Sequence record: PZ445422.1
Direction: 5' to 3' (one strand)
Length of the DNA: 56,589 nucleotides
Source of the DNA: a phage
The notes beneath the pieces are model-generated. The model was not told the DNA's origin, ran no database searches, and worked only from the letters and a program-made list of their open reading frames with translations. The position numbers were made by a program, and so were the translations under genes. Shown here in pieces: positions 29,526 to 43,365 of the stretch (positions within the stretch are counted from its first letter, which is position 1; every line of letters starts with the position of its first letter).

Positions 29526-30434
29526 ATGGCTATTTATATTGCAGAAAAAACACTTCAAGCGATCAATGACGGTGTGCAAAAAGATCAGGGTGGGACTTAC
29601 CGTAAATATCTTGGCGTAGTTATTCCCACAATTGAAGACGCATATCGTCCTGAAAGCGGGAACCGCAGTCACTTAGGTGCTTCCCTTATTGGACAACAAT
29701 GTGCTCGCAAGCTGTTCTACGGGTATCGCTGGGCTACGCGTAAAGAGTTCGATGGACGCCAGCTCCGCCTATTTAACCGCGGACATCTGGAAGAAGCGCG
29801 TTTCATTGCTATGCTTCTTGCGGCAGGTATGCAGGTCTACCAGCAGGATGAAAACGGACACCAGTTCCGTATCAGCGAAGCTGGCGGACACTTTGGCGGT
29901 TCCTGCGATGGTGTGGTTATAGGTTGTCCGGACGTTCAGCCTGGAATGCCCGTGCTTACTGAAATGAAGACTCATAATGATAAGTCTTTCAAGAAGCTGA
30001 AAGCTAAAGGTGTCAAAGAAGCTAAACCTGAGCACTATGTACAGATGAACGTGTACATGCGAAAGCTTGGACTTGGCGCAGCGTTATATCTTGCTGTAAA
30101 CAAGAACGATGATGAAGTTTACGCAGAAATTATTCCATTTGATCCGGTCACTGCGGACATGTATATTGATCGTGGTGTGCAGATTGCTATTGCTACGGAT
30201 ATTCCTGACCGTGCATTCAAAGACTCTACCTTCTTCGAATGCAAATGGTGTGACCACTCCTCATTGTGCTGGCGTAAAACTATGCCGGAAGTAAACTGTC
30301 GCACATGTCAATTTCTTGAGCCAAAAGATGATGGAACATGGTATTGCAATTTCCATTCCGTTGCAGTAGATACTCAGGGTCAAAAAGTTGGTTGTCAAAA
30401 CTATCAAGTAGCTAACTATTACGGGAAAGATTGA
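29526..30434 (+). CDS. PD-(D/E)XK-family nuclease with C-terminal Cys cluster (Cas4/RecB-like exonuclease)
   Basis: 302 aa; C-terminal CKWCDHSSLCWRK...CRTCQF four-Cys cluster typical of Cas4-like nucleases; within recombination gene set. Confidence 0.45.
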   Translation: MAIYIAEKTLQAINDGVQKDQGGTYRKYLGVVIPTIEDAYRPESGNRSHLGASLIGQQCARKLFYGYRWATRKEFDGRQLRLFNRGHLEEARFIAMLLAAGMQVYQQDENGHQFRISEAGGHFGGSCDGVVIGCPDVQPGMPVLTEMKTHNDKSFKKLKAKGVKEAKPEHYVQMNVYMRKLGLGAALYLAVNKNDDEVYAEIIPFDPVTADMYIDRGVQIAIATDIPDRAFKDSTFFECKWCDHSSLCWRKTMPEVNCRTCQFLEPKDDGTWYCNFHSVAVDTQGQKVGCQNYQVANYYGKD

Positions 30435-30436
30435 TT

Positions 30437-32413
30437 ATGCAGCTCCGCGATTATCAACAGGAAGCAGTTTATAGCGTATTCCGCTATTTTGATGCTGAAA
30501 AGGGTAACGCGGGGAACCCTTTGATCCTGTTACCAACAGGGACAGGAAAATCGCTCGTTATCGCGGGGTTCCTCGATCTGCTTTATAAATGGTATCCAAA
30601 CCAGCGCGTAATGATGTTAACTCACGTCAAAGAGTTGATTGCGCAAAACTATGATAAATTAATGAAAGTCTGGCCTGAAGCGCCAGCAGGTATTTACAGC
30701 GCAGGTTTGAAGCGTAAAGAAGTTTATAATCTTATCACATTTGCGGGGATTGCATCCGTTGCTAAGCATCCTAAAAAGTTCGGCAAGGTTGATCTAATCT
30801 TTGTGGATGAAGCGCACCTTATTAGTCCGCGTGATGCAACAATGTATAAGAAGTTCTTTGCAGCATTGCGTGAAGTTAACCCGTATTTAAAAATCATCGG
30901 TCTTACCGCTACACCTTACCGACTGGGTTACGGCTCAATTGTTAAGGAAAACGAAGACGATGATGCGTTATTTGATAAAGTAACGTTTGATGCAACTACC
31001 CCTGAAGCCTTTAACTGGTTCCTGGAGCAAGGCTATTTGCTTCCGGTTGTGCCAAAGCGTACAAAGATGGAGTTGGACCTCAACGGGGTAGGTAAACGCG
31101 GCGGTGAGTTTATCCAGAGTGAGCTGCAAAGCGCGGTGAACCGCGACGATGCAACACTCCGCGCGCTTGAGGAAGCCATTGAATGTGGTGAAGACCGCCA
31201 AAGCTGGCTTATATTTTGTTCTGGCATTGAACACGCTAAAGACGCGTGTGATATGCTGAACGATATGGGTATTAGTTGCGGATGTATCCATTCAAAACTT
31301 GATGCAAAAGAGCGTGACGAAATTATTGAAAAGTTCAAGCGTGGAGAGTTTCGAGCGTTAACGAACAACAACGTCTTAACCACAGGTTTTGACCATCCGA
31401 TGCTCGATCTAATTATCATGCTCCGCCCCACTGCGTCGGCGGTGCTATGGGTTCAGATGCTGGGTCGCGGTACGCGTCCGGTATACGCGGAAGGCTTTGA
31501 TCTTTCCACGCAGGAAGGCCGCTTGCAAGCTATTGCAGCAAGCCCTAAGCAAAACTGCCTTGTACTGGATTTCAGCGGTAATACGCGCCGTTTGGGGCCT
31601 ATTAACGACCCTGTTAAACCTAAGCGCCCGGGCGAAAAAGGTGCTGGTACTGCTCCGGTTAAAGAATGCGATGTGTGCGGGTCGTATAATCATGCATCTT
31701 CTCGCTATTGCGGTGGCTTTGCACCAATCCCTATGGACAGCGTTACACAGGAACAAGTTCAACAATTATATTTGAAGGGATTCAGACTACGTGGAACGGA
31801 TTATGTTAAAGAAGGATTTTGCGGTCATGAGTTTAAGTTCCAGACAAAACTTAAAAAGGCAGCAAGTACCGAAGCATTAATCAAGCAGGACATTCCGGTA
31901 GTTGAAGACTTTAAAGTTACGCATGTGACTTATGCGAAGCACACTAAACGCAATGACAGCTCCAAACCTCCAACAATGAAGGTGACTTATTATTGCGGCA
32001 GTAAAATATTTAGCGAATGGGTAGCTTTGCTGCATGGCGACTGGGCTGGTCGTAAAGCGGTTGCATGGTGGAAAAAAAGGACGCATCTTCCTTTACCACA
32101 AACTATTGAAGAAGCTCTTGATGTTGCTGCAATGCTCAAAACACCGAAATACATCAAAGTTCATACTAATAAGAAATGGCCTGAGATATTGAACTATGAT
32201 TATGATGGTACGTGTTTCGGTAAGTTTGAAGCTCCACAGGACGAAGAAGCTATTCAGGTTAAAGTATACGGGCAGGATGGAACAACCGAAGGTCCAAGCT
32301 ATAACGATGATGTGAGCTGGGATGATATTGTTTCACAGAATACGCAAGGTATAACGGTGAATAATGTGGTTAATCCTGTACAAGTAGATGATCCGGATTA
32401 CGTTCCGTTCTAA
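30437..32413 (+). CDS. superfamily 2 DNA helicase (DEAH-box)
   Basis: Walker A LLPTGTGKS, motif II IFVDEAHL, helicase C-terminal arginine block MLGRGTRP; Cys-rich insert CDVCGSYNHASSRYCGG. Confidence 0.75.
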   Translation: MQLRDYQQEAVYSVFRYFDAEKGNAGNPLILLPTGTGKSLVIAGFLDLLYKWYPNQRVMMLTHVKELIAQNYDKLMKVWPEAPAGIYSAGLKRKEVYNLITFAGIASVAKHPKKFGKVDLIFVDEAHLISPRDATMYKKFFAALREVNPYLKIIGLTATPYRLGYGSIVKENEDDDALFDKVTFDATTPEAFNWFLEQGYLLPVVPKRTKMELDLNGVGKRGGEFIQSELQSAVNRDDATLRALEEAIECGEDRQSWLIFCSGIEHAKDACDMLNDMGISCGCIHSKLDAKERDEIIEKFKRGEFRALTNNNVLTTGFDHPMLDLIIMLRPTASAVLWVQMLGRGTRPVYAEGFDLSTQEGRLQAIAASPKQNCLVLDFSGNTRRLGPINDPVKPKRPGEKGAGTAPVKECDVCGSYNHASSRYCGGFAPIPMDSVTQEQVQQLYLKGFRLRGTDYVKEGFCGHEFKFQTKLKKAASTEALIKQDIPVVEDFKVTHVTYAKHTKRNDSSKPPTMKVTYYCGSKIFSEWVALLHGDWAGRKAVAWWKKRTHLPLPQTIEEALDVAAMLKTPKYIKVHTNKKWPEILNYDYDGTCFGKFEAPQDEEAIQVKVYGQDGTTEGPSYNDDVSWDDIVSQNTQGITVNNVVNPVQVDDPDYVPF

Positions 32414-32428
32414 TTGACTTCAACATCT

Positions 32429-32460
32429 AATGCCCCTACTATTGGGGCATTACTTATTTA
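32429..32460 (+). terminator. intrinsic terminator
   Basis: aatgcccc-tactatt-ggggcatt stem followed by T-rich tract. Confidence 0.5.
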
Positions 32461-32472
32461 TAGGGGATTGCA

Positions 32473-32967
32473 ATGTACGTCCTAATTGATACAGATAAAT
32501 TTGAACTCTTGGCAAAGCACCCCAATTGGCTGACACTACACCAACTTGGAATTATTTGTTGCCCTGAGTCAACACTGGTAACACCAGTAGACGATTTACA
32601 CGATCTTGAAGATGTTGATCTTCAAATGCTTTATATTAACTTGACAGAAAATTTAGGAGCGGCACCTTATGAACGGGAAATCGTTGAGCGCATTTTGTTT
32701 GATTACTTTACGCAACTTCCAGAAACAATCATGGATCACGCCCAAATCAGCGCACAAGCCGAATTCTGTGTGGAATACGATATCCAAGGCTTTTGCTCAC
32801 CTCAAATTGGGCAATACGTTCCGTCAATGGATGAAGGACTTTGGAAACCTGCCCGTGTCAAATACGATGCTGAACGGGAGGGTGGTATTATTTCCGGTGC
32901 CAGGGTCGTTTGTGAGCAACCCGCATTGCAAGCTGCATGGACACCGGGCAGAGGGGCAAAGAGTTAG
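32473..32967 (+). CDS. hypothetical protein
   Basis: 164 aa; AGGGGA RBS. Confidence 0.5.
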   Translation: MYVLIDTDKFELLAKHPNWLTLHQLGIICCPESTLVTPVDDLHDLEDVDLQMLYINLTENLGAAPYEREIVERILFDYFTQLPETIMDHAQISAQAEFCVEYDIQGFCSPQIGQYVPSMDEGLWKPARVKYDAEREGGIISGARVVCEQPALQAAWTPGRGAKS

Positions 32968-33094
32968 TAAGTTCTAAGCTTGATCAAAAATATTTTTAAA
33001 AATATTCAGATAAGGGGTTGCGTGTCACAAAATCCTTTGGTACATTTAACCCCGTTGGTAACAAACGAACCCATAACAATTCGGAGTGAAGAGA

Positions 33095-33898
33095 ATGAGC
33101 AACATTGAAGATAAAAAAGCCGCTGCCGCTGCTGCCGCTGCTGCCGCTGCAAAATCTGCTAAACCTGCAAAGAAAGAAGCTACTGTGAATGATGCAGAAG
33201 CTAAGAAAGCCGCTGCCGCTGAAGCTGCACGCGTAGCAAAAGAGAAAAAAGAAGCAGAGAAAAAAGCTGCCGCTGAAAAGAAACAAGCTGAAATCCGCAC
33301 TGAAGCGGAAAACAAATTTAATGCGATTGCTAACGCTGCTGAAATCCTGAAAAACTCTTTGGCTACCGTCACCGACGAAAGCACTGTTGAACAAATCACG
33401 GAAGCAGAAACTCAGGGATCTGCAAACCTGAAGACCATTAAAGAAGCTCTGAAAGAGCTGAAAGCTGTCGTTAAGAAGTCTAAAGGTGAAGACCTGTCCG
33501 GTGCTGTAACTTCTGCCCAGGGTCTGGTGGATGGTCTGGAAGCTACTATTAAAGGCTTCAAAGACAAGATCCGTGCTGCAAAACAGGCAGAAAAAGAAGC
33601 GGAAAAAGCACGCGCTAAAGAGCTCCGCGAGAAAGAAAAAGAAGCTAATCGTATGCCGGAACAGAACGGTGTTCGTCGCCCACAACCGGAAACTTCCTGC
33701 GGTCGTGCCTGGGCCCTGATGGACCAGATTAGCGCTACGCTGGGTCAGCCTGCTCCGATCTCTTATGTTCTGAACCTGGCTGGTCGCCATGGTCTGAACG
33801 AAGATACCGTTAAAACCCAATATGCACGCTGGAAGAAATTTAATGGTGTAACTGGTCGCGTACCTGTGCCAGTACCGGAAGCTTTGAACGGCTTGTAA
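33095..33898 (+). CDS. Ala/Lys-rich histone H1-like protein with distinct C-terminal domain
   Basis: ATG at 33095 with GGAGTGAAGAGA RBS; N-terminal two-thirds is KAAAAAAAAAAAK / AEKKAAAEKK low complexity; C-terminal 80 aa globular. Confidence 0.5.
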   Translation: MSNIEDKKAAAAAAAAAAAKSAKPAKKEATVNDAEAKKAAAAEAARVAKEKKEAEKKAAAEKKQAEIRTEAENKFNAIANAAEILKNSLATVTDESTVEQITEAETQGSANLKTIKEALKELKAVVKKSKGEDLSGAVTSAQGLVDGLEATIKGFKDKIRAAKQAEKEAEKARAKELREKEKEANRMPEQNGVRRPQPETSCGRAWALMDQISATLGQPAPISYVLNLAGRHGLNEDTVKTQYARWKKFNGVTGRVPVPVPEALNGL

Positions 33899-33923
33899 TA
33901 TCAAAACATATCACGTTATAATG

Positions 33924-33950
33924 AAGGCGCCCAATGAGGCGCTTTCTTTT
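33924..33950 (+). terminator. intrinsic terminator
   Basis: aaggcgcc-caatga-ggcgcttt stem followed by T-rich tract. Confidence 0.5.
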
Positions 33951-33967
33951 TCACTAGAGGATTTAAG

Positions 33968-34675
33968 ATGAATATTAATCAACAAGCTCCCGAGTCTCGT
34001 TCTAAAGAAAACGATATGTATTTAGACGTGCATTCGGTATTCTCTACCATTCAGGGTGAAGGTCCATTCTGCGGTCAACCTGCGGTATTTGTGCGCCTTG
34101 CTGGATGTAACCTGCAATGCCCGGGCTGCGACACGGATTATACTGTTGGTCGTTCTCTTTACCACATTGTTGATATCATGCGTTTAATCGAAAGCCGTAA
34201 GCTGGAATCAGGCAATAGCACCTCACTTGTGGTTATTAGTGGGGGTGAACCGTTCCGTCAGCAAATTAACCCGTTTATTGAACAACTGTTATCGCGCGGG
34301 TATCTTGTACAGATTGAAACGAATGGGTCTATGCCTTTACCTAAGAACTTTTCCCAGCTACCTGTCATTGTATGCAGTCCTAAGACTTCAAAGATTCATC
34401 CTTCTGTGCTGTACCGCGCTAATGCATTTAAATATGTACTTAAAGCGTGCTGTGTAAACGTGGAAGATGGTTTGCCTCTTCAAGCATTAGATCATCAAGC
34501 TACGCCATTTATCGCTAGACCTCCGAAGGGGTTCAAGGGTAAGATATATTTACAGCCAATGGACGAGCAGGATGAAGATCTTAACCACAGTAACATCAAA
34601 GCGGTTGTCCAAAGCTGTATGAAACACGGGTACACGTTGCAGCTTCAGGTTCACAAATATATCGGGGTGGAATAA
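33968..34675 (+). CDS. queE: 7-carboxy-7-deazaguanine synthase (radical SAM)
   Basis: FSTIQGEGPFCGQPAVFVRLAGCNLQCPGCDTDYT matches the QueE N-terminal Cx14CxxC radical-SAM signature; AGAGGA RBS. Confidence 0.85.
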   Translation: MNINQQAPESRSKENDMYLDVHSVFSTIQGEGPFCGQPAVFVRLAGCNLQCPGCDTDYTVGRSLYHIVDIMRLIESRKLESGNSTSLVVISGGEPFRQQINPFIEQLLSRGYLVQIETNGSMPLPKNFSQLPVIVCSPKTSKIHPSVLYRANAFKYVLKACCVNVEDGLPLQALDHQATPFIARPPKGFKGKIYLQPMDEQDEDLNHSNIKAVVQSCMKHGYTLQLQVHKYIGVE

Positions 34676-34887
34676 TGATCACTTTAGAAGAAGCGAAACA
34701 GCATCAGGAAATGATCACTGAGCTGGTAGAAAAACTTAATTCTGCAATTGCTCACGCTACCATGCAGGGAGTGCATGTAGAATTGGATATTAATCACGTT
34801 AGTACAATCGGGGCACGCAATCATCCAATTGTGATGTCAAATGTAACAATCAATCCTTGTAATATTAAAGGTGTAGAAGATGAATGA
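34675..34887 (+). CDS. hypothetical small protein, paralog of next ORF
   Basis: 70 aa; LNSAIAHATMQGVHVELDI parallels LNDAICRAASKNIHSELEI in the adjacent ORF. Confidence 0.45.
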   Translation: MITLEEAKQHQEMITELVEKLNSAIAHATMQGVHVELDINHVSTIGARNHPIVMSNVTINPCNIKGVEDE

Positions 34888-35068
34888 AGAGACTGTGGTT
34901 CTTATGCAGAAGATGCAACGTTTACAAGACGAGCTGAATGACGCTATCTGTCGTGCTGCATCCAAGAACATACATTCGGAGCTTGAAATTCATAAGCGTC
35001 AGATGACATCTGATGATGTAGTTGAACAAGTGGTCGTTAATCTTAATATTAGCCTTAAAGGGTTCTAA
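34880..35068 (+). CDS. hypothetical small protein, paralog of previous ORF
   Basis: 62 aa; overlaps previous ORF by 8 nt; shared sequence pattern. Confidence 0.45.
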   Translation: MNEETVVLMQKMQRLQDELNDAICRAASKNIHSELEIHKRQMTSDDVVEQVVVNLNISLKGF

Positions 35069-35069
35069 G

Positions 35070-35777
35070 ATGAATAAATTAGATAAACTGGTATTCCCTG
35101 TAAAAAATCATAACTCCGCCGTTGTCGTCCTGTCTGGCGGCCAGGACAGCGTGACCTGTTTAGGTCTTGCACTTAATAACTATGATAAGGTTTACGCTAT
35201 TGGTTTTGCATACGGTCAACGTCATAACATTGAGCTGGCTTGTGCTAATCAAATTTGTAAAGAGCACGATGTCCAATTTGTTGTCTTTGAATTACCTGCT
35301 TTGAAACAGATTGGCAATAGCGCTTTAATCGGGAACGAAGGTGATGTTAACGAACATCACGAACAGCACAACAACCTTCCGGCTAGCTTTGTGCCAAACC
35401 GTAATGCTCTTTTTCTGACTACCGCGCACGCCTACGCGCAGAAAGTTGGCGCCCGATATGTGGTTACGGGCGTTTGCGAAACGGACTATAGCGGTTATCC
35501 GGATTGCCGTCAGCAGTTTGTAGATTTGCTTGAAGCTACGTTAAACGTTGGATATGAAACAGATATTCATTTCGTTACCCCGCTTATGCGTTTAAATAAA
35601 GCAGAAACGTTTGAGCTGGCGGATAAGGTTGGTTTCTTAACCACAGTAATTGAACAATCCCATACTTGCTATAACGGCGTCCGTCGCACTCTGCATGACT
35701 GGGGATATGGTTGCGGTGAATGTCCTGCGTGCAAACTGCGTGCTAAGGGGTACAGCGAATTTATTAGCAAAGCTTGA
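35070..35777 (+). CDS. queC: 7-cyano-7-deazaguanine (preQ0) synthase
   Basis: AVVVLSGGQDSVTCL PP-loop motif and YAIGFAYGQRHNIEL block typical of QueC; ATG at 35070 immediately after previous stop. Confidence 0.85.
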   Translation: MNKLDKLVFPVKNHNSAVVVLSGGQDSVTCLGLALNNYDKVYAIGFAYGQRHNIELACANQICKEHDVQFVVFELPALKQIGNSALIGNEGDVNEHHEQHNNLPASFVPNRNALFLTTAHAYAQKVGARYVVTGVCETDYSGYPDCRQQFVDLLEATLNVGYETDIHFVTPLMRLNKAETFELADKVGFLTTVIEQSHTCYNGVRRTLHDWGYGCGECPACKLRAKGYSEFISKA

Positions 35778-35897
35778 TCTTACCGCGAAAACCGCACCGC
35801 TAGCGCATTGTTTAGGGTGCGGGAACCCAACTATACTACTAAAGCTTTTAAACCCAACAACCAGCGAATAACGCTGTTAAAACTGGAGAACAAAAGT

Positions 35898-36377
35898 ATG
35901 AAATTTATCGTTGCTTATCTGGCTGCAATTACATTCGTAAACCTGGGCTTTTCCTACCTTCCAATACTTAACACGCCGCTTGGCGTAGTCCCGATGATGG
36001 CTTTCTTTGTAGGTATTATCTTTGTGTTGCGCGACTACGCACAGCGTAACGCTGGCAAAGGCGTCATCCCTGCAATGATTATCGGTTGTATTCTTAGCTG
36101 GGTATTCGGGGATCCTGCGGTTGTAGTTGCATCAGTTGCATCCTTTGCACTTAGCGAGTTTGCGGACTATGCGGTATACACGATTACTAAGAAGCCTTTC
36201 CATCAACGAGTATTTATCAGCTCTTTGGTAGCTGTACCGATTGACTCCATTGTGTTCTTAAGTATTATAGGTATTGTTAATCCGGGATCAATGGTAGCAA
36301 TGAGCTTAAGTAAGTTCACAGCATCCGCTATCCTTTGGATTGTTTACGAAGTTCAATCACGTACAGCGAGAGCGTAA
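35898..36377 (+). CDS. integral membrane protein, possible queuosine-precursor transporter (YhhQ/DUF165-like)
   Basis: ATG at 35898 with GGAG RBS; about 5 TM segments; assignment rests mainly on location inside the deazaguanine cluster. Confidence 0.35.
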   Translation: MKFIVAYLAAITFVNLGFSYLPILNTPLGVVPMMAFFVGIIFVLRDYAQRNAGKGVIPAMIIGCILSWVFGDPAVVVASVASFALSEFADYAVYTITKKPFHQRVFISSLVAVPIDSIVFLSIIGIVNPGSMVAMSLSKFTASAILWIVYEVQSRTARA

Positions 36378-36378
36378 A

Positions 36379-36969
36379 ATGAAAGATAATCTTAATAAAA
36401 TTTGGCACCAGCACGATGGGAAAGGAATGCCAATCTTTCTTCGCAATGAAAAGTTTGAAGTTCGTTTGCGCAACGGCACACACGTTAAGAATCTATTACA
36501 TGGATGGGATTGGGCTATAGAAGGGCGTTCAGCTATGGATGAAAATAGCCCTTATAAAGTTCAAGATATTATAGCCTGGCGATATATCGTTGCGGATGAT
36601 TACGTCAAACAAGCCAGCGAAAACACTCGCTCCGGAGTGTACCATCAACCTTCTTCTGGAATAAGCATAAGTAATACATTTAATGGTGCAGTTTTTACCA
36701 AATATGAACCATCTAAAATTCCCATGAATAAATATCAGAAAATTATTTATGGTAAAGATCAAAACGGCAATGTTGTAAAATGCATCGTGGACGTGTATGA
36801 TGTCTTGGAAGCTTGGAAAACAACTAACCCAGCTTTACAACATTTGATTAAAAAGGCGTTGCAGCCGGGCGAACGTGGTCATAAAAGTCTGGTAGAAGAT
36901 TTGAAAGACATTATTGCATCCGCACAGCGTGCATTAGAAATTGAACAGTCTAAAGAGGTATTAAAATGA
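36379..36969 (+). CDS. hypothetical protein embedded in deazaguanine cluster
   Basis: 196 aa; ATG at 36379 right after previous stop; stop overlaps queD start; no recognisable motif. Confidence 0.5.
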   Translation: MKDNLNKIWHQHDGKGMPIFLRNEKFEVRLRNGTHVKNLLHGWDWAIEGRSAMDENSPYKVQDIIAWRYIVADDYVKQASENTRSGVYHQPSSGISISNTFNGAVFTKYEPSKIPMNKYQKIIYGKDQNGNVVKCIVDVYDVLEAWKTTNPALQHLIKKALQPGERGHKSLVEDLKDIIASAQRALEIEQSKEVLK

Positions 36970-37502
36970 GCTATACAGTAATTCGTTCACATGAAATTTG
37001 CGCCGGACATCGTGTTGTAGGTCACGAAAGCAAATGTCGCCACCTCCACGGTCACAACTATAAGTTTCACTTTAAGGTTGCTCCGAAGCATGGATGCGGA
37101 AAAGTAGTGACACGAGGAAAGCTGATTGAGGACGGTCTGGACAGCGTTGGGCGCGTGATTGACTTTAGTGTGGTTAAAGCTACGCTCTGCCAGTGGCTAG
37201 AAGATAACTGGGATCATAAGTTTCTACATTGGGAAAAGGATATGTTGATCAACGGACTGCAATGTTGTATTGAAACGGATACTCAATCTGAACGCGGTTG
37301 GCCTACTTTCGGTGAAGGGGATGAAGATCTTAAAGCTTTTAACGATTCACTGGTATCTTTGCCGTTCAACCCAACTGCGGAAAACCTAGCTGCATATATG
37401 GTTGAAGTAATTGGTCCGCAACTGCTTGACGAACATAGTGTTCAACTTGTAGAATGCACCATCGAAGAAACTTCGAAATGCCACGTAAACTATAGCCTGT
37501 AA
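36966..37502 (+). CDS. queD: 6-carboxy-5,6,7,8-tetrahydropterin synthase
   Basis: ICAGHRVVGHESKCRHLHGHNY carries the QueD/PTPS Cys and His-x-His zinc motif. Confidence 0.8.
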   Translation: MSYTVIRSHEICAGHRVVGHESKCRHLHGHNYKFHFKVAPKHGCGKVVTRGKLIEDGLDSVGRVIDFSVVKATLCQWLEDNWDHKFLHWEKDMLINGLQCCIETDTQSERGWPTFGEGDEDLKAFNDSLVSLPFNPTAENLAAYMVEVIGPQLLDEHSVQLVECTIEETSKCHVNYSL

Positions 37503-37503
37503 T

Positions 37504-38127
37504 ATGACCACATTAACAAGGAAACTGCAAACCATGTCTAAATATAGTATTAATAGTGAAGGTGTTCAATTCCGTATTGCTAACGCTGTGCGTACTTTAC
37601 TATCCCAAATTGAAGTTAGCGCGGTTCTGCGCCCAGGGCTGGAGGAAACTCCGGAGCGTGTAGCGAAAGCTTATGCAACGTGGTTTAGCGGTTACGATGT
37701 AGATATCGCTGGATTGTTTAAAACCTTTGAAGATGGTGCGGAAGGTACGGATGAAATGGTCATTGTCCGTGATATTCCTGTATACAGTCATTGTGAGCAT
37801 CACATGGCCCCTATCATCGGGCGTGCTGTTGTGGGTTATGTCCCCAATGGGAAGATCGTTGGGCTTAGTAAGCTGTCTCGCGTTGTGGATGCTTTTAGTC
37901 GTCGACTGCAAGTTCAGGAACGTCTTACTAACCAGATTGCAGATGCTATCCAGGAGCATTTAGACCCGAAAGCTGTGTGCGTTTACATCGATGCTAAGCA
38001 TATGTGCATGGAATCGCGCGGGGTTAAGCAGGTATGCGGAAGCTCTACCATTACTAAAGCTTTCCGCGGTGCTGCATCGTTTAAAGGTGATGCTTGGCGC
38101 CGGGAGTTCCTTGAAGCTTGTAAATAA
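37504..38127 (+). CDS. folE: GTP cyclohydrolase I (alternative start at 37534)
   Basis: CEHHMAPIIGRAVVGYVPNGKIVGLSKLSRVVDAFSRRLQVQERLT matches the FolE active-site region nearly residue for residue. Confidence 0.9.
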   Translation: MTTLTRKLQTMSKYSINSEGVQFRIANAVRTLLSQIEVSAVLRPGLEETPERVAKAYATWFSGYDVDIAGLFKTFEDGAEGTDEMVIVRDIPVYSHCEHHMAPIIGRAVVGYVPNGKIVGLSKLSRVVDAFSRRLQVQERLTNQIADAIQEHLDPKAVCVYIDAKHMCMESRGVKQVCGSSTITKAFRGAASFKGDAWRREFLEACK

Positions 38128-38146
38128 TAGATAGCTTTACAGATCA

Positions 38147-38182
38147 AGCCCATATCGGTCATAATACTGGTATGGGCTTTTT
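38147..38182 (+). terminator. possible terminator or attenuator hairpin
   Basis: agcccata ... tatgggct stem with large loop followed by TTTTT. Confidence 0.3.
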
Positions 38183-38198
38183 AGTCATTGGAGGAAAT

Positions 38199-38405
38199 AT
38201 GTCAAGACAACTAATCTTAGAGACAGCATTCTACCAGCTTAAAGCAGGTACTGCGGATGCTTGCTCTGCAATACAGAATGATGCGCCTACAGATGTTTTA
38301 AAGCAGCAGCTTATTGACGCTAAACATCGAGCGGACGAAGCATTTAATGAAGCGTGGCGTACTTTAGAATTAATTGATCAGTTTGGAGGACCATTCCAAA
38401 AATGA
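38199..38405 (+). CDS. hypothetical small protein
   Basis: ATG at 38199 with GGAGGAAAT RBS; 68 aa. Confidence 0.45.
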   Translation: MSRQLILETAFYQLKAGTADACSAIQNDAPTDVLKQQLIDAKHRADEAFNEAWRTLELIDQFGGPFQK

Positions 38406-39322
38406 ACGTATTTATGGCAGCAGTTTACACAAACGGATATATGCCTGGACAGCAGCGTTATGAGAAGCTGTCTGAGCATGAGAAAAATATCACGCGCAAT
38501 CTGCCCCATATTTTGGAATCATATCACTACGTTGGGCGTCAGAAGTATGTTGATCAAATGCGTGCGGACGGGGCTAAAGTGTTTCTCGACTCCGGTGCAT
38601 TCTCTGCGCACTCTTTAGGTGCTCACATTGATATTGTCGAATATTGCGAATACATCAAACGCAATAAAGATATCCTGCGGGTAGAAGATGGTGCGGTAAT
38701 GGCGTCGGTACTTGATGGTATCGGTGATCCGTTACAAACCTACCGTAACCAGCTTGAAATGGAAGCACGCGGTGCTAAACCGTTACCGTGCTTTCACTTT
38801 GGTGAGGACTTCCGCTATCTTGAATATTACATGAAGAACTACGAATATATCACCATCGGGGGCATGGTAGGGCGTTCGACAGACACGCTTAAAACATGGC
38901 TTGACCGTATGTGGGACAAATACATTTGCGATGGTAGCGGTTGCCCTAAGATTAAGCTTCATGCATTTGGTATTACGTCCACTACCATCATGGAACGTTA
39001 TCCGTGGTATAGCTGTGACTCGTCCTCCTGGATTCAAGCGGCAGCGTTTGGAAGTGTGGTTACTCCTCCGTGGGGACCAATGCGCGTATCAGATAAGTCA
39101 CCGGACCGCCATCATTTTGGTAAGCATGTTTCAACATTAACTGAAATTGAACAAGACGCTGTCCTTAAATACCTTGAGCAAAACGGTTTCACTTACGAAC
39201 GTTTATCAACAATCTATGAATCACGTGCCGCCTTCAACTTATGGGCGTATGGTGTAATTGCTGCAAACATTAACGCTACCCATGACGGCACATTCCGTGA
39301 TCGTGTAATGGAGTTGTTCTGA
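38402..39322 (+). CDS. dpdA: 7-deazaguanine DNA transglycosylase (TGT-like)
   Basis: 306 aa; VFLDSGAFSAHSLG resembles the TGT catalytic-Asp block (DSGGFQ); co-located with folE-queD-queC-queE; start overlaps upstream stop. Confidence 0.65.
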   Translation: MNVFMAAVYTNGYMPGQQRYEKLSEHEKNITRNLPHILESYHYVGRQKYVDQMRADGAKVFLDSGAFSAHSLGAHIDIVEYCEYIKRNKDILRVEDGAVMASVLDGIGDPLQTYRNQLEMEARGAKPLPCFHFGEDFRYLEYYMKNYEYITIGGMVGRSTDTLKTWLDRMWDKYICDGSGCPKIKLHAFGITSTTIMERYPWYSCDSSSWIQAAAFGSVVTPPWGPMRVSDKSPDRHHFGKHVSTLTEIEQDAVLKYLEQNGFTYERLSTIYESRAAFNLWAYGVIAANINATHDGTFRDRVMELF

Positions 39323-39549
39323 TGGCTAACTTAAGAAGACCAAAAGGTAAACGTAAATATACTCACACAGGCGTAAGAATTAATTATTACAGTGAAAACA
39401 GAGTAGTATTTCTCCACAAGACACCTAAGCAGTGGCAGGATCCGTCAGGCACATGGTTTAATGCGCAAGGAAAACAAATGGGACTTTATGGATTACCTCC
39501 AACATGTGAATTAGACTTAACCACAATTAGAGCAATCGAGGATCGCTAA
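39322..39549 (+). CDS. hypothetical small protein
   Basis: 75 aa; ATG overlaps dpdA stop. Confidence 0.45.
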   Translation: MANLRRPKGKRKYTHTGVRINYYSENRVVFLHKTPKQWQDPSGTWFNAQGKQMGLYGLPPTCELDLTTIRAIEDR

Positions 39550-39785
39550 TGACACCAGTGTGTGAAGAATATATTACTTCCCAATCTAAAGCTGGGGGTA
39601 AAGCGGTAGGTCGTGTTGCCATCGCTAAGTTAACAAACGCGGGCTATGTACCAAAAGTTACCCCACCACCCCCTGAGCCCTGGATATGGGAGAAAAACGA
39701 GGGTCGTATTATGGCCATTACATCGTATATGGGACCTTTTAGATTAAAGATTGAGTATCTTGTAGACTTAGATGGGGACTCCTAA
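39549..39785 (+). CDS. hypothetical small protein
   Basis: 78 aa; TAATG stop-start overlap on both sides. Confidence 0.45.
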   Translation: MTPVCEEYITSQSKAGGKAVGRVAIAKLTNAGYVPKVTPPPPEPWIWEKNEGRIMAITSYMGPFRLKIEYLVDLDGDS

Positions 39786-40738
39786 TGCTTGACGCTCTTA
39801 AATTTGTTCAAGGCTCTGTTGCTAAAAAGGAACTGGTAGAAGGGCTTACTAGCTTTCTTATTCGTGACGGGCAGGTACAAGGCTTTAACGGTGTTATTGC
39901 ACTGGGTAGTCCTATTGAGCTGGATATTGATTGCAAGCCCGAAGCTGGGCCTATGATTAAAGCTATCTCAAACTGTGACGAAACCGTACAGTTAACAATG
40001 ATGGCTAACGGTAAACTTAATATCAAGTCCGGACCGTTTCGTGTTGCTATACGCTGCATTGATAAAGAAACGCTGCACGTATTCCCTGAAGGCGATTTGT
40101 ACGAAATAGATGGTGCTCGCTTCGTTCATGGTGTGAAGTCCGTTGCTCCGTTTGTAGGCTCGGATGCGTCCCGTCCGTGGGCTTGCGGGATCCTGATTAA
40201 TAACGGTAGTCTATTTGCTACAAATAACGTCACCATTGCGGAATACTGGTTTGGTAATCAGTTTCCTATTGATTGCATAATACCTTCCGTTGCAATTAAA
40301 GAAATACTGCGTATTAAAGCTAACCCGACGCATATTCAGGTTAGCAAGAACAATGTCACGTTTCATTATCCGGAAGGTCGCTGGTTGCGCACACAGCTTA
40401 TTGATGCGGAGTGGCCCGATATACGTCGTATTTTAAATGTTCAATGCAATGCGCATCCTGTTGATCCAGGTCTTTTTGAAGGCTTGCATAAAATTAAACC
40501 GTTCGCAGAAGACCGACCGCGTGTATATATTGAAAACGGTCTGGCGCGTACCCATTACGACGATGCAGAAGGTGCAAGCTTCGTATTACAAGACCGAACA
40601 ATAACGGGAGTGTACAATATTGATATCCTGCTATTGCTTGAAAATGTGGTTAAGACTGCGGACTTTAGTTTGTATCCGCAACCTTGCGCATTCTTTGGGG
40701 AAAATCTTCGCGGTGTATTAATTGGAGAACGTGTCTAA
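39785..40738 (+). CDS. DNA polymerase sliding clamp (DnaN-like)
   Basis: 317 aa; HYPEGRWLRTQLIDAEWPDIRRIL parallels the DnaN domain II-III junction (..FTSKLVDGRFPDYRRVL); directly upstream of polymerase. Confidence 0.5.
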   Translation: MLDALKFVQGSVAKKELVEGLTSFLIRDGQVQGFNGVIALGSPIELDIDCKPEAGPMIKAISNCDETVQLTMMANGKLNIKSGPFRVAIRCIDKETLHVFPEGDLYEIDGARFVHGVKSVAPFVGSDASRPWACGILINNGSLFATNNVTIAEYWFGNQFPIDCIIPSVAIKEILRIKANPTHIQVSKNNVTFHYPEGRWLRTQLIDAEWPDIRRILNVQCNAHPVDPGLFEGLHKIKPFAEDRPRVYIENGLARTHYDDAEGASFVLQDRTITGVYNIDILLLLENVVKTADFSLYPQPCAFFGENLRGVLIGERV

Positions 40739-42723
40739 TGCGGACAGATGCTATTGGTTTCTTTTGGCAGGACTTACCGCCTGAGCCAAAAGCAAAGAAA
40801 GAAAAGGTTAAACGTTTACCGCCGGAGCGCACTTGGGAGCGCCCGGATTATCTGCCTAACCTTGAAGAAGCGCGGAACTTCCAATACAACCTGTATACGC
40901 AGGACGAACTTATTCAAGCATGGATTAACCGCGAACCGCTTGTATACGATATTGAATGTTATCCAAACTATTTCTTAATCGCGTTTCGCGGAGTACGGAC
41001 TAAGAAAGTTGTCTACTTCGAAATGTATCACGGTTGTAGTTTGAATTGCTTGTTACTTAACTGGATAATGACAAACTTCCTTATCGTAAGCTTTAACGGT
41101 AACGGGTACGATATGCCAATTGCTACGCTTGCGCTTAACGGCTGCTCTAATGCTCAGCTTAAAGATGCAACCGATAAGATAATCGTGGAAGACTGGCGTC
41201 CTTCCGATGTGTTGAAGAGTTACCGCCTTAAGCGTATGCAGAACGTTAACCACATTGATATTATGGAAGTTCTGCCTGGATCTGGTGGTTTGAAACAATA
41301 TGGCGGACGTGTACATACTCGCCGTATGCAGGATTTACCGTTCAAGCCAAATACAATGTTGACGCAGGACCAGATGTTAATTGTACGCTGGTACTGTATT
41401 AACGACCTTGTACAGACGGAAGAATGTTTTATTGCATTGCAAGAGCCTTTGCACCTTCGTGAAATTATGTCGCAAGAATACGGTGTGGATCTGCGTTCAC
41501 GTTCTGATGCGCAGATTGCAGAAGACGTAATTAAACACGAAATTCAAGCGTTAACGGGCGTGCGTCCGCAGCGTCCACAAGTTTATCCTGGAACTAAGTA
41601 TGCATATAACATACCGGACTTTATTCGTTTTCAAACACCTCTGATGAACAGTGTTTTGGATATTGTTCGGGACTGCCGTTTTGTTGTTAGCGATAACGGT
41701 GGTGTTAGCTTACCTCCAGCGTTAACAGGCCTTGAAATCAAGATTGCGGACGGTGTCTACCGTATGGGCATTGGTGGTTTGCACAGCTCTGAAGAATGTG
41801 CTGGACATGGTAAAGAGCCAGGTATTAAAAAGCGGGACATTGACGTAACGTCCTATTACCCTTCTATTATTCTTAATCAGGGCTTGTATCCTGAGCAGTT
41901 GGGACCAGCGTTTCTTCGTGTTTATAAAAGCATTGTAGACCGACGTATTGCAGCTAAGCACTCAGGGGACAAGAACACAGCCAATACGCTGAAGATCGTA
42001 ATTAACGGATCGTTTGGTAAATTGGGTTCAATGTGGTCCGTACTGTACGCTCCGCAATTGTTGATACAGGTAACTATCACAGGGCAACTATCACTGTTAA
42101 TGCTTATTGAAGCATTTGAGCTGAACGGTGTTAAAGTAATTTCAGCTAACACGGATGGTATTGTGGTTAAGTATCCTGACCACATGCAGGACTTCGTTGA
42201 TAACATGATCAAGTGGTGGGAATCCGTCACAGGTTTTGAAATGGAATCCACTTATTATGACAAGCTATATAGCGCGAACGTTAACAACTATGTAGCTGTC
42301 AAAGAACCTGATGCAGAAGGTAACGTTGAAGTTAAGCGTAAGGGCTGGTTTGCCAAGACAGGGCTTCAAAAGAACTGTACTGGTGAAATTATTATGGAAG
42401 CTGTATGTGAATGTTTGGCCCACGGTACGCCTGTTTCTCGTACTATACGCAATTGCAACGATATTAGAAAATTCATTATCCTACGTGCAGTAAAAGGCGG
42501 CGCGGTATGGAATGGCGAATTTTTGGGTAAGGTTGTACGCTGGTATTTAAGCACCAATGAAGAAACCCCTGAAATAATCTATGCTAACTCGGGCAACCGT
42601 GTAGCTGGTAGCGCGGGAGGTGTCCCAATCATGACGCTACCGGATAAAATACCGGACGACATAGATTATGATGCTTATATAGCTAAAGCAGAGAAGTATC
42701 TCGAAGACATGGGTTATGCCTAA
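40738..42723 (+). CDS. family B DNA polymerase with 3'-5' exonuclease domain
   Basis: Exo I-like YDIECYPNYF; family B motif A DVTSYYPSIIL; motif C-like variant ISANTDGIVV; ATG at 40738 overlaps clamp stop. Confidence 0.75.
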   Translation: MRTDAIGFFWQDLPPEPKAKKEKVKRLPPERTWERPDYLPNLEEARNFQYNLYTQDELIQAWINREPLVYDIECYPNYFLIAFRGVRTKKVVYFEMYHGCSLNCLLLNWIMTNFLIVSFNGNGYDMPIATLALNGCSNAQLKDATDKIIVEDWRPSDVLKSYRLKRMQNVNHIDIMEVLPGSGGLKQYGGRVHTRRMQDLPFKPNTMLTQDQMLIVRWYCINDLVQTEECFIALQEPLHLREIMSQEYGVDLRSRSDAQIAEDVIKHEIQALTGVRPQRPQVYPGTKYAYNIPDFIRFQTPLMNSVLDIVRDCRFVVSDNGGVSLPPALTGLEIKIADGVYRMGIGGLHSSEECAGHGKEPGIKKRDIDVTSYYPSIILNQGLYPEQLGPAFLRVYKSIVDRRIAAKHSGDKNTANTLKIVINGSFGKLGSMWSVLYAPQLLIQVTITGQLSLLMLIEAFELNGVKVISANTDGIVVKYPDHMQDFVDNMIKWWESVTGFEMESTYYDKLYSANVNNYVAVKEPDAEGNVEVKRKGWFAKTGLQKNCTGEIIMEAVCECLAHGTPVSRTIRNCNDIRKFIILRAVKGGAVWNGEFLGKVVRWYLSTNEETPEIIYANSGNRVAGSAGGVPIMTLPDKIPDDIDYDAYIAKAEKYLEDMGYA

Positions 42724-42733
42724 ATTCTACTTG

Positions 42734-42758
42734 CAGACCCTTCGCGGGTCTGTTTTAA
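42734..42758 (+). terminator. intrinsic terminator
   Basis: cagaccc-ttcgc-gggtctg stem followed by TTTTAATA. Confidence 0.55.
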
Positions 42759-42787
42759 TATATGCATACAACAAGAGGAGATGCAAA

Positions 42788-43072
42788 ATGAGCTTAGTAG
42801 ACGATTACAACAAAGGTAAAATCGACGCGGTGGAACTTAACCGTCAGCTTAATAAACAAAATGAAGAACGCAAACAAGGTAAATACCTTACAATGATTGT
42901 TGCGCTTATCTTCACTGTTATTGGTGGATGTGTTTACGGCTACATTAACCACACTGTTGAAGTTGGCTACGAATGTCGCGCTAAATATCCAATTCACGTT
43001 GGTGTAACTCCACAGGAAGACATTGATGCGCTTCTGGAACTTCAAGCCTTATGTCGTAAAGGGAAAGCATAA
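42788..43072 (+). CDS. small membrane protein
   Basis: ATG at 42788 with AGAGGAG RBS; central TM segment LTMIVALIFTVIGGCVYGYI. Confidence 0.45.
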   Translation: MSLVDDYNKGKIDAVELNRQLNKQNEERKQGKYLTMIVALIFTVIGGCVYGYINHTVEVGYECRAKYPIHVGVTPQEDIDALLELQALCRKGKA

Positions 43073-43365
43073 TGAAACGTTTATTACTCGTAACTTTGCT
43101 GATAGCGCCTGGTGTCCAAGGTGTGGATTTAAAAGATGCAGCAAAGAAACTATGCCAAGACCATCCTATTAAGTTACAATGTGAAGACCTTGTATCCAGC
43201 ATGTTAACTCATTCTTACGTGATGGGACAAACGCAGCTTGGATGTGAGTTAGGTATTATTGATGCGTGCAAAGCAGCGCGTACCAATAAACATTTTGAAA
43301 AGAACGCACGTTGGCTGGAGCAGCGCATTAGAACCCTTGATCATAGGGGTACTTTTGGGGGCTAG
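43072..43365 (+). CDS. secreted Cys-containing small protein
   Basis: N-terminal signal-like MKRLLLVTLLIAPGVQG; six Cys in mature part. Confidence 0.45.
   Translation: MKRLLLVTLLIAPGVQGVDLKDAAKKLCQDHPIKLQCEDLVSSMLTHSYVMGQTQLGCELGIIDACKAARTNKHFEKNARWLEQRIRTLDHRGTFGG

Follow-up and report, generated by a model that had tools for sequence, protein, structure and literature searches.

A probable dPreQ0 DNA-modification module of the Seuratvirus type in Escherichia phage GottfriedDienst (Bas21)

Phages that carry 7-deazaguanines in place of guanine have their DNA shielded from restriction and from Cas9, which matters for the choice of phages for therapy, and these bases in turn give modification-sensing defences a target. 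Genetics, chemistry and nanopore sequencing have all been applied to dissect the system of phage CAjan (NC_028776). Its DNA contains 70,628 dPreQ0 per 10^6 nt, i.e. about 32% of G, while dADG, dG+ and dPreQ1 all stay under 6 per 10^6 nt (Hutinet 2019, PMC6884629), and the motifs targeted for dPreQ0 are GA and GGC (PMC7544227). Here, we analyse an interval of 5,355 nt (33968..39322, + strand) in a phage genome of 56,589 bp, hereafter the window, where an earlier note made from the sequence alone had recognised the genes folE, queD, queC, queE and a dpdA next to them. We conclude with high confidence that in phage GottfriedDienst (Bas21) this interval holds the 7-deazaguanine DNA-modification module known from Seuratvirus, the expected product being dPreQ0 at GA and GGC.

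The route to the free base is established, from GTP through H2NTP, CPH4, then 7-carboxy-7-deazaguanine (CDG) to 7-cyano-7-deazaguanine (preQ0), and it has been restated for these phages (PMC6884629, PMC7544227, PMC10516641). Seuratvirus phages make dPreQ0 with FolE, QueD, QueE, QueC and DpdA, as described in the paper on the BASEL collection (PMC8594841). When dpdA (gp35) is deleted from CAjan, dPreQ0 falls below 6 per 10^6 nt and each of the enzymes tried cuts the DNA (PMC6884629). The deletion of queC lowers dPreQ0 about 12-fold, that of folE abolishes modification above the nanopore threshold, and that of yhhQ leaves modification at the wild-type level (PMC7544227); queE (gp45) is not among the genes knocked out in this phage. 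The other point of reference is phage 9g, where QueC is part of a protein of 471 amino acids (aa) fused to an amidotransferase (Gat) domain and the DNA carries dG+, whereas in CAjan QueC is unfused and the base is dPreQ0 (PMC8594841, PMC10516641).

A megablast search of the interval against GenBank phage records returned MZ501071.1 with a match of 100% over all 5,355 nt. This record is that of Escherichia phage GottfriedDienst (Bas21 in the BASEL collection; Queuovirinae, Seuratvirus), isolated from Basel sewage on E. coli K-12. The window is its complete genome, reverse-complemented and rotated, such that record position p (for p at least 8992) becomes window position 65581-p. By the same search, 33 phage genomes share 80% or more of the region, nearly all with at least 90% identity, including those of Seurat, slur01, Greed and CSP1. 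Ten co-oriented + strand open reading frames (ORFs), all intact, fill the interval in the order queE, orf70, orf62, queC, yhhQ-like, orf196, queD, folE, orf77, dpdA. The earlier note had quoted motifs for five co-oriented genes, and every one of them lies in an intact, stop-terminated ORF. These five genes are real, but a YhhQ-like protein and four other ORFs had been overlooked, and the order folE-queD-queC-queE-dpdA is not the physical one, which is queE-queC-yhhQ-queD-folE-dpdA. The core genes are the following.

33968..34675, + strand: queE, CDG synthase, a radical S-adenosylmethionine (SAM) enzyme of 235 aa; 98.7% identical to CAjan gp45
35070..35777, + strand: queC, stand-alone preQ0 synthase of 235 aa that lacks a Gat domain; 97% identity with CAjan gp42
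36966..37502, + strand: queD, 6-carboxy-tetrahydropterin synthase of 178 aa; 77% identical to CAjan gp38 and 72% to 9g gp05
37504..38127, + strand: folE, GTP cyclohydrolase I of 207 aa; 86% identical to CAjan gp37
38402..39322, + strand: dpdA, DNA guanine/7-deazaguanine transglycosylase of 306 aa, of phage subfamily DpdA1; 99.3% identity with CAjan gp35

Three of the four enzymes for preQ0 synthesis match curated families, at levels well outside chance. QueC matches PF06508 (6e-75) and TIGR00364 (243 bits, with the cut-off at 150) and has the PP-loop SGGQDS at residue 22; its annotated start is the ATG at 35070 and not the upstream TTG at 35022. FolE matches PF01227 (3e-64) and TIGR00063 (202 bits, with the cut-off at 182), with the motifs CEHHMAPIIG at residue 97 and QVQERLT at residue 136. 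QueD matches PF01242 (2e-22; 79.7 bits, above the gathering threshold of 22.4) and stays below the cut-off of the equivalog model TIGR03367 (62.5 bits for a cut-off of 89); it has CAGH at residue 12 and HGH at residue 28, and its canonical CxxxHGH signature reads C24-RHL-H28-G-H30. The family match of QueE is weaker than those of the other enzymes, yet specific. Its best five NCBIfam matches are all QueE models (E ~1e-27 to 1e-19), each well short of its curated cut-off, and NrdG comes next at 8e-11. It scores 26.1 bits with Pfam Radical_SAM, under the gathering threshold of 29.5, matches PHROG 2076 ('QueE-like') at 5e-68 and carries the CX3CX2C cluster CNLQCPGC at residue 47. The earlier family calls are thus confirmed by curated models for QueC, FolE and QueD, and that of QueE is probable by its weaker matches. 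That the four proteins would make preQ0 from GTP, as also proposed, is supported by homology, and it is on homology that the pathway rests in this genome.

The fifth protein is the one that sequence models alone would not have named a tRNA-guanine transglycosylase (TGT). It has no match in Pfam even at an E-value of 10, the TGT family PF01702 included. With NF041059, the NCBIfam model of bacterial DpdA, the score is 16 bits where 200 are required (E 0.004), and only residues 147-212 are covered; PDB sequences returned nothing, whether searched with the single sequence in phmmer or with a profile of 33 sequences. The match to PHROG 887 is strong (3e-95). The assignment is settled by three elements taken together, identity to CAjan gp35, fold and active site. 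The identity of 99.3% extends over 306/306 aa, the only differences being C181R and P182A; with 9g gp03 it is 68% over 304 aa, and the DpdA of 9g has been placed in the DpdA1 subfamily (PMC10516641). When the predicted structure was used in fold searches, the top matches were bacterial DpdA, arcTGT and bacterial TGT, and the structure is a TGT-like (beta/alpha)8 barrel. The proposal that this protein belongs to the TGT/DpdA families is therefore borne out by fold and not by the sequence models; the earlier note was ready to give it up if the protein matched no TGT/DpdA fold, and it does match. In the model, pLDDT is below 50 at residues 207-222, 230-240 and 259-306, past the nucleophile D206, so that the C-terminal third is modelled at low confidence.

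The active site of CAjan DpdA has been mapped, with D206 as the nucleophile, D63 as the general acid/base and S64, F67, D105, H132, G153, G154 and F189 forming the pocket (Kot 2020, PMC7544227). The Bas21 protein has all nine residues, with an LDSGAF block at residue 62, and they are invariant in 33 homologues (~70% identity). One-to-one counterparts exist in the crystallised bacterial DpdA, namely D95, D130, H181, G206, G207 and D256 (PMC10164549). A structural zinc motif, CxCx2Cx22H, has been described as conserved in bacterial DpdA and TGTs (PMC10164549). No CxCxxC is found in the Bas21 protein, whose cysteines are only at positions 82, 130, 176, 181 and 205, nor in any of the 33 homologues. 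The genes folE, queD, queC and queE all lie within 4.5 kb upstream of dpdA on the same strand. No DpdB ATPase or other part of the dpd restriction cluster is annotated in the MZ501071.1 record, with no dedicated search having been run. Every computationally testable feature of the subfamily is thus present, and by these comparisons the product of 38402..39322 belongs to phage DpdA1. It is outside the curated TGT and bacterial DpdA families, with which it shares fold and catalytic residues, but as a distinct and smaller lineage.

These elements suggest the following mechanism. FolE would convert host GTP to H2NTP, QueD would turn this into CPH4, QueE would produce CDG and QueC would release preQ0 as a free base. 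After replication DpdA, a TGT-like TIM barrel, would excise guanine from double-stranded phage DNA and insert preQ0 in its place, an exchange for which CAjan provides the genetic demonstration. In a reaction by double displacement, Asp206 would be the nucleophile and Asp63 would serve as general acid/base; this chemistry has been shown biochemically for bacterial DpdA (PMC10164549) and presumably applies to the phage enzyme. At GA and GGC sites, dPreQ0 would take the place of about one quarter to one third of the G, and many restriction enzymes of types I and II would be blocked. External preQ0 may be salvaged by the YhhQ-like protein, which would be dispensable. The genome holds 6,126 GA and 1,040 GGC sites among 25,290 G (both strands), which, if the CAjan motifs apply, corresponds to 28.3% of G (63,316 per 10^6 nt), near the value measured in CAjan. 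By analogy with the latter, we infer that the DNA in Bas21 virions carries dPreQ0 at GA and GGC.

One might argue that the pathway works as proposed and ends with another base, i.e. dG+, dADG, dPreQ1 or dCDG. A tblastn search of the whole window in all six frames with the proteins of 9g found matches for DpdA, FolE, QueD and QueE at 63-80% identity, and it is with homologues of these four enzymes that 9g ends with dG+. Besides, some phage DpdAs are promiscuous (PMC10516641), and the four cluster ORFs without assigned function could in principle modify preQ0 further. Yet, the Gat domain of 9g is what the window lacks. Only residues 241-457 of the 9g Gat-QueC match in the window, at 27% identity, while the Gat half (residues 1-240 of gp06) has no tblastn match in the whole window at E <=0.01; the dG+ branch was rejected on this point. 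QueC is stand-alone, and QueF, ArcS, DpdL, DpdM and DpdN are annotated nowhere in the MZ501071.1 record. Finally, CAjan has the same set of ORFs (the small ones with 87-99% identity) and contains only dPreQ0 (PMC6884629). We thus regard a different final base as very improbable. Given the missing amidotransferase match, the stand-alone QueC and the lack of an annotated QueF, the expected product is dPreQ0 and not dG+. From one genus to the other, FolE, QueD, QueE and DpdA keep 63-80% identity, whereas QueC has only 27% with the QueC half of the 9g protein. At the queC step, a distant homologue seems to have taken over, and not just a Gat domain to have been gained or lost.

A second possibility is that the cluster serves tRNA and not DNA, boosting queuosine or preQ synthesis, with the TGT-like enzyme tuning translation. 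The names in databases invite this reading, since PHROG 887 and many related records are called 'queuine tRNA-ribosyltransferase' and older annotations speak of 'queuosine biosynthesis', and the fold is common to tRNA-guanine transglycosylases. But the CAjan protein that is 99.3% identical to the Bas21 one is required for dPreQ0 in DNA (PMC6884629). DpdA has just 306 aa, without a Pfam TGT match, a CxCx2C zinc motif or the C-terminal tRNA-binding domains, and the genes queF, queA and queG, which complete queuosine, are not annotated in the record. The gene also sits among replication genes, as the earlier note had pointed out. A helicase is encoded upstream of the cluster (30431..32413), and a polymerase processivity (clamp) subunit and the DNA polymerase directly downstream (39785..42723). 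A function in tRNA is accordingly even harder to defend than a different final base, and the reading of the TGT-like protein as a DpdA that acts on DNA stands on its near-identity to CAjan gp35, its fold and its conserved catalytic residues.

Least credible of all is a module that is inactive or largely redundant, with restriction resistance coming from site avoidance or anti-restriction proteins: we found no chemical analysis of Bas21 DNA in the literature, though papers use this phage, but all ten ORFs are intact with their catalytic motifs kept, the cluster is conserved in 33 phage genomes and nucleases whose reported targets are specifically phages with modified G do restrict Bas21. The latter observation comes from a 2025 preprint, in which modification-sensing END nucleases restrict 'phages with modified G' and Bas21 is counted with these; it implies, indirectly, that the modification is present. 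The dPreQ0 module would then protect the phage genome from host restriction, the role first proposed for it, by analogy with CAjan in vitro (PMC6884629) and with Queuovirinae in vivo. The phages of this subfamily resist type I and type II restriction-modification systems, only Bas19 and Bas25 being named as partly sensitive, and all of them are sensitive to type III systems (PMC8594841).

The remaining five ORFs of the interval are interleaved with the core genes.

34675..34887, + strand: orf70 (bas21_0047), 70 aa; PHROG 26258; 97% identical to CAjan gp44
34880..35068, + strand: orf62 (bas21_0046); PHROG 24420, unknown function; 87% identical to CAjan gp43
35898..36377, + strand: yhhQ-like membrane protein, putative preQ0 transporter of 159 aa; 96% identical to CAjan gp41
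36379..36969, + strand: orf196 (bas21_0043), between yhhQ-like and queD; PHROG 23361, unknown function
38172..38405, + strand: orf77 (bas21_0040), overlapping the start of dpdA by 4 nt; PHROG 20065, unknown function; 93% identical to CAjan gp36

The YhhQ-like protein has matches to Vut_1 (24.4 bits, gathering threshold 27.2) and TIGR00697 (20.9 bits, cut-off 51) that are both below threshold and cover the models in part. CAjan gp41 is called a 'putative preQ0 transporter', and MZ501071.1 annotates a preQ0 transporter at this position. Judging by its coordinates, the published 'yhhQ' deletion of CAjan (550 bp at 31,850) seems to extend into gp40, the homologue of orf196, and to take the 5' part of this gene with it; this overlap we infer from Table 1 of PMC7544227. 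The wild-type modification of that mutant therefore suggests that neither yhhQ nor gp40 is needed for the insertion of dPreQ0.

Neither Pfam nor NCBIfam has a match for orf70, orf62 or orf77. PHROG 26258 labels orf70 a 'radical SAM domain-containing protein', and likewise CAjan gp44, but orf70 is devoid of a cysteine cluster and seems to owe this label to transfer from the annotation of the neighbouring queE. Kot et al. list gp44 among the genes of the CAjan cluster with no assigned function, and they flag the interleaved ORFs of that cluster in the same way (PMC7544227).

The most variable of these proteins is orf196, with 55% overall identity to CAjan gp40. Its N-terminal ~115 aa are variable and its C-terminal ~70 aa are extremely conserved: NKYQ..VDVYDVL.AW..NPALQHLIKKALQPGERGHK..EDLKDIIASAQRALE. 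One could think of DUF3310-like phage domains, a resemblance that none of the searches bears out and that we do not claim. Searches of Pfam, NCBIfam and PDB sequences gave no match to orf196, which has 410 homologues in all. Its AlphaFold2 model is moderate (pLDDT 67), and its matches in BFVD are uncharacterised phage proteins, together with weak ones annotated 'nucleotide kinase' (E 7e-3). The C-terminal domain is found again in 9g gp07, and phages and metagenomes have further proteins that combine it with other N-termini. Some of these phages have no Q cluster, which weighs against a role specific to the pathway.

There is a small chance that at least one of orf70, orf62, orf196 and orf77, which are kept across Seuratviruses, is a working part of the modification system. 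If so, they might contribute to the choice of GA and GGC targets by DpdA, to the channelling of preQ0 or to countering defences that sense 7-deazaguanine, such as END nucleases and Dag glycosylases.

Some observations concern the surroundings of the cluster. Directly upstream of queE, at 33086-33898 (+), a protein of 270 aa rich in Ala, Lys and Glu has a run of 11 alanines. It is a homologue of 9g gp09 (41% identity) and the positional counterpart of CAjan gp46 ('FtrA domain-containing'); it has no significant Pfam match. Two strong terminator-like hairpins on the + strand, with stems of 9 and 8 bp followed by T runs, lie at 33923-33946, just upstream of queE, and at 42733-42753, just after the stop codon of the DNA polymerase gene. 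They enclose a block of tightly packed co-oriented genes from queE to the polymerase, which is suggestive only, and a promoter-like TTGTAA-18-TATAAT at 33893-33922 abuts the first hairpin. A scan of 32400..43200 found promoter and terminator sites to be no commoner than in shuffled sequence (25 vs 21.1 and 9 vs 10.6, respectively), and for this reason we make no claim of an operon. On a larger scale, GC skew over the whole window is negative at ~1-18 kb and 44-56.6 kb and positive at ~18-44 kb. The positive stretch corresponds to the + strand replication and modification genes, and the structural genes are on the - strand.

The system that we describe is already known. The MZ501071.1 record names QueE, QueC, YhhQ, QueD, FolE and DpdA at exactly these coordinates, in wording that includes '7-deazaguanosine inserting enzyme DpdA' and 'dPreQ0 synthase QueC', the phage's own paper explains the pathway (PMC8594841), and the CAjan cluster has been dissected. 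What the analysis adds for this genome is the expectation of dPreQ0 and not dG+, an estimate of ~28% of G modified if the CAjan motifs apply, and a DpdA1 without zinc motif. It also has value for calibration, since a reading of the raw sequence without tools had named the system correctly.

The comparison with the described systems places the Bas21 cluster closest to that of CAjan (gp35-gp45), of which it is an orthologous copy, a phage of the same genus with the same gene order, the same context of replication genes, a stand-alone QueC and no amidotransferase. Identity between the two is very high for DpdA (99.3%), QueE (98.7%), QueC (97%), orf70 (97%) and YhhQ (96%), somewhat lower for orf77 (93%) and orf62 (87%), and the most diverged proteins are FolE (86%), QueD (77%) and orf196 (55% with gp40). 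CAjan has an additional ORF of 108 aa, gp39, between gp40 and queD, which has no counterpart in the window. The cluster of 9g (Nonagvirus, gp03-gp08), also of the Queuovirinae, likewise adjoins the polymerase clamp and the DNA polymerase, and its proteins are 80% (FolE), 72% (QueD), 68% (DpdA) and 63% (QueE) identical to those of Bas21. It differs by the Gat-QueC fusion that leads to dG+, and no YhhQ is annotated in 9g. More distant is the bacterial DpdA from the Dpd restriction-modification system of S. Montevideo (PDB 7UI4), which has 413 aa against 306, a structural Zn site CxCx2Cx22H and four insertions. Bacterial DpdA modifies less than 0.1% of G, against ~30% modified in CAjan (PMC10516641). 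Finally, arcTGT (PDB 1IQ8/1J2B) and bacterial TGT (PF01702) act on tRNA, are much larger, and have C-terminal tRNA-binding domains and a Zn site.

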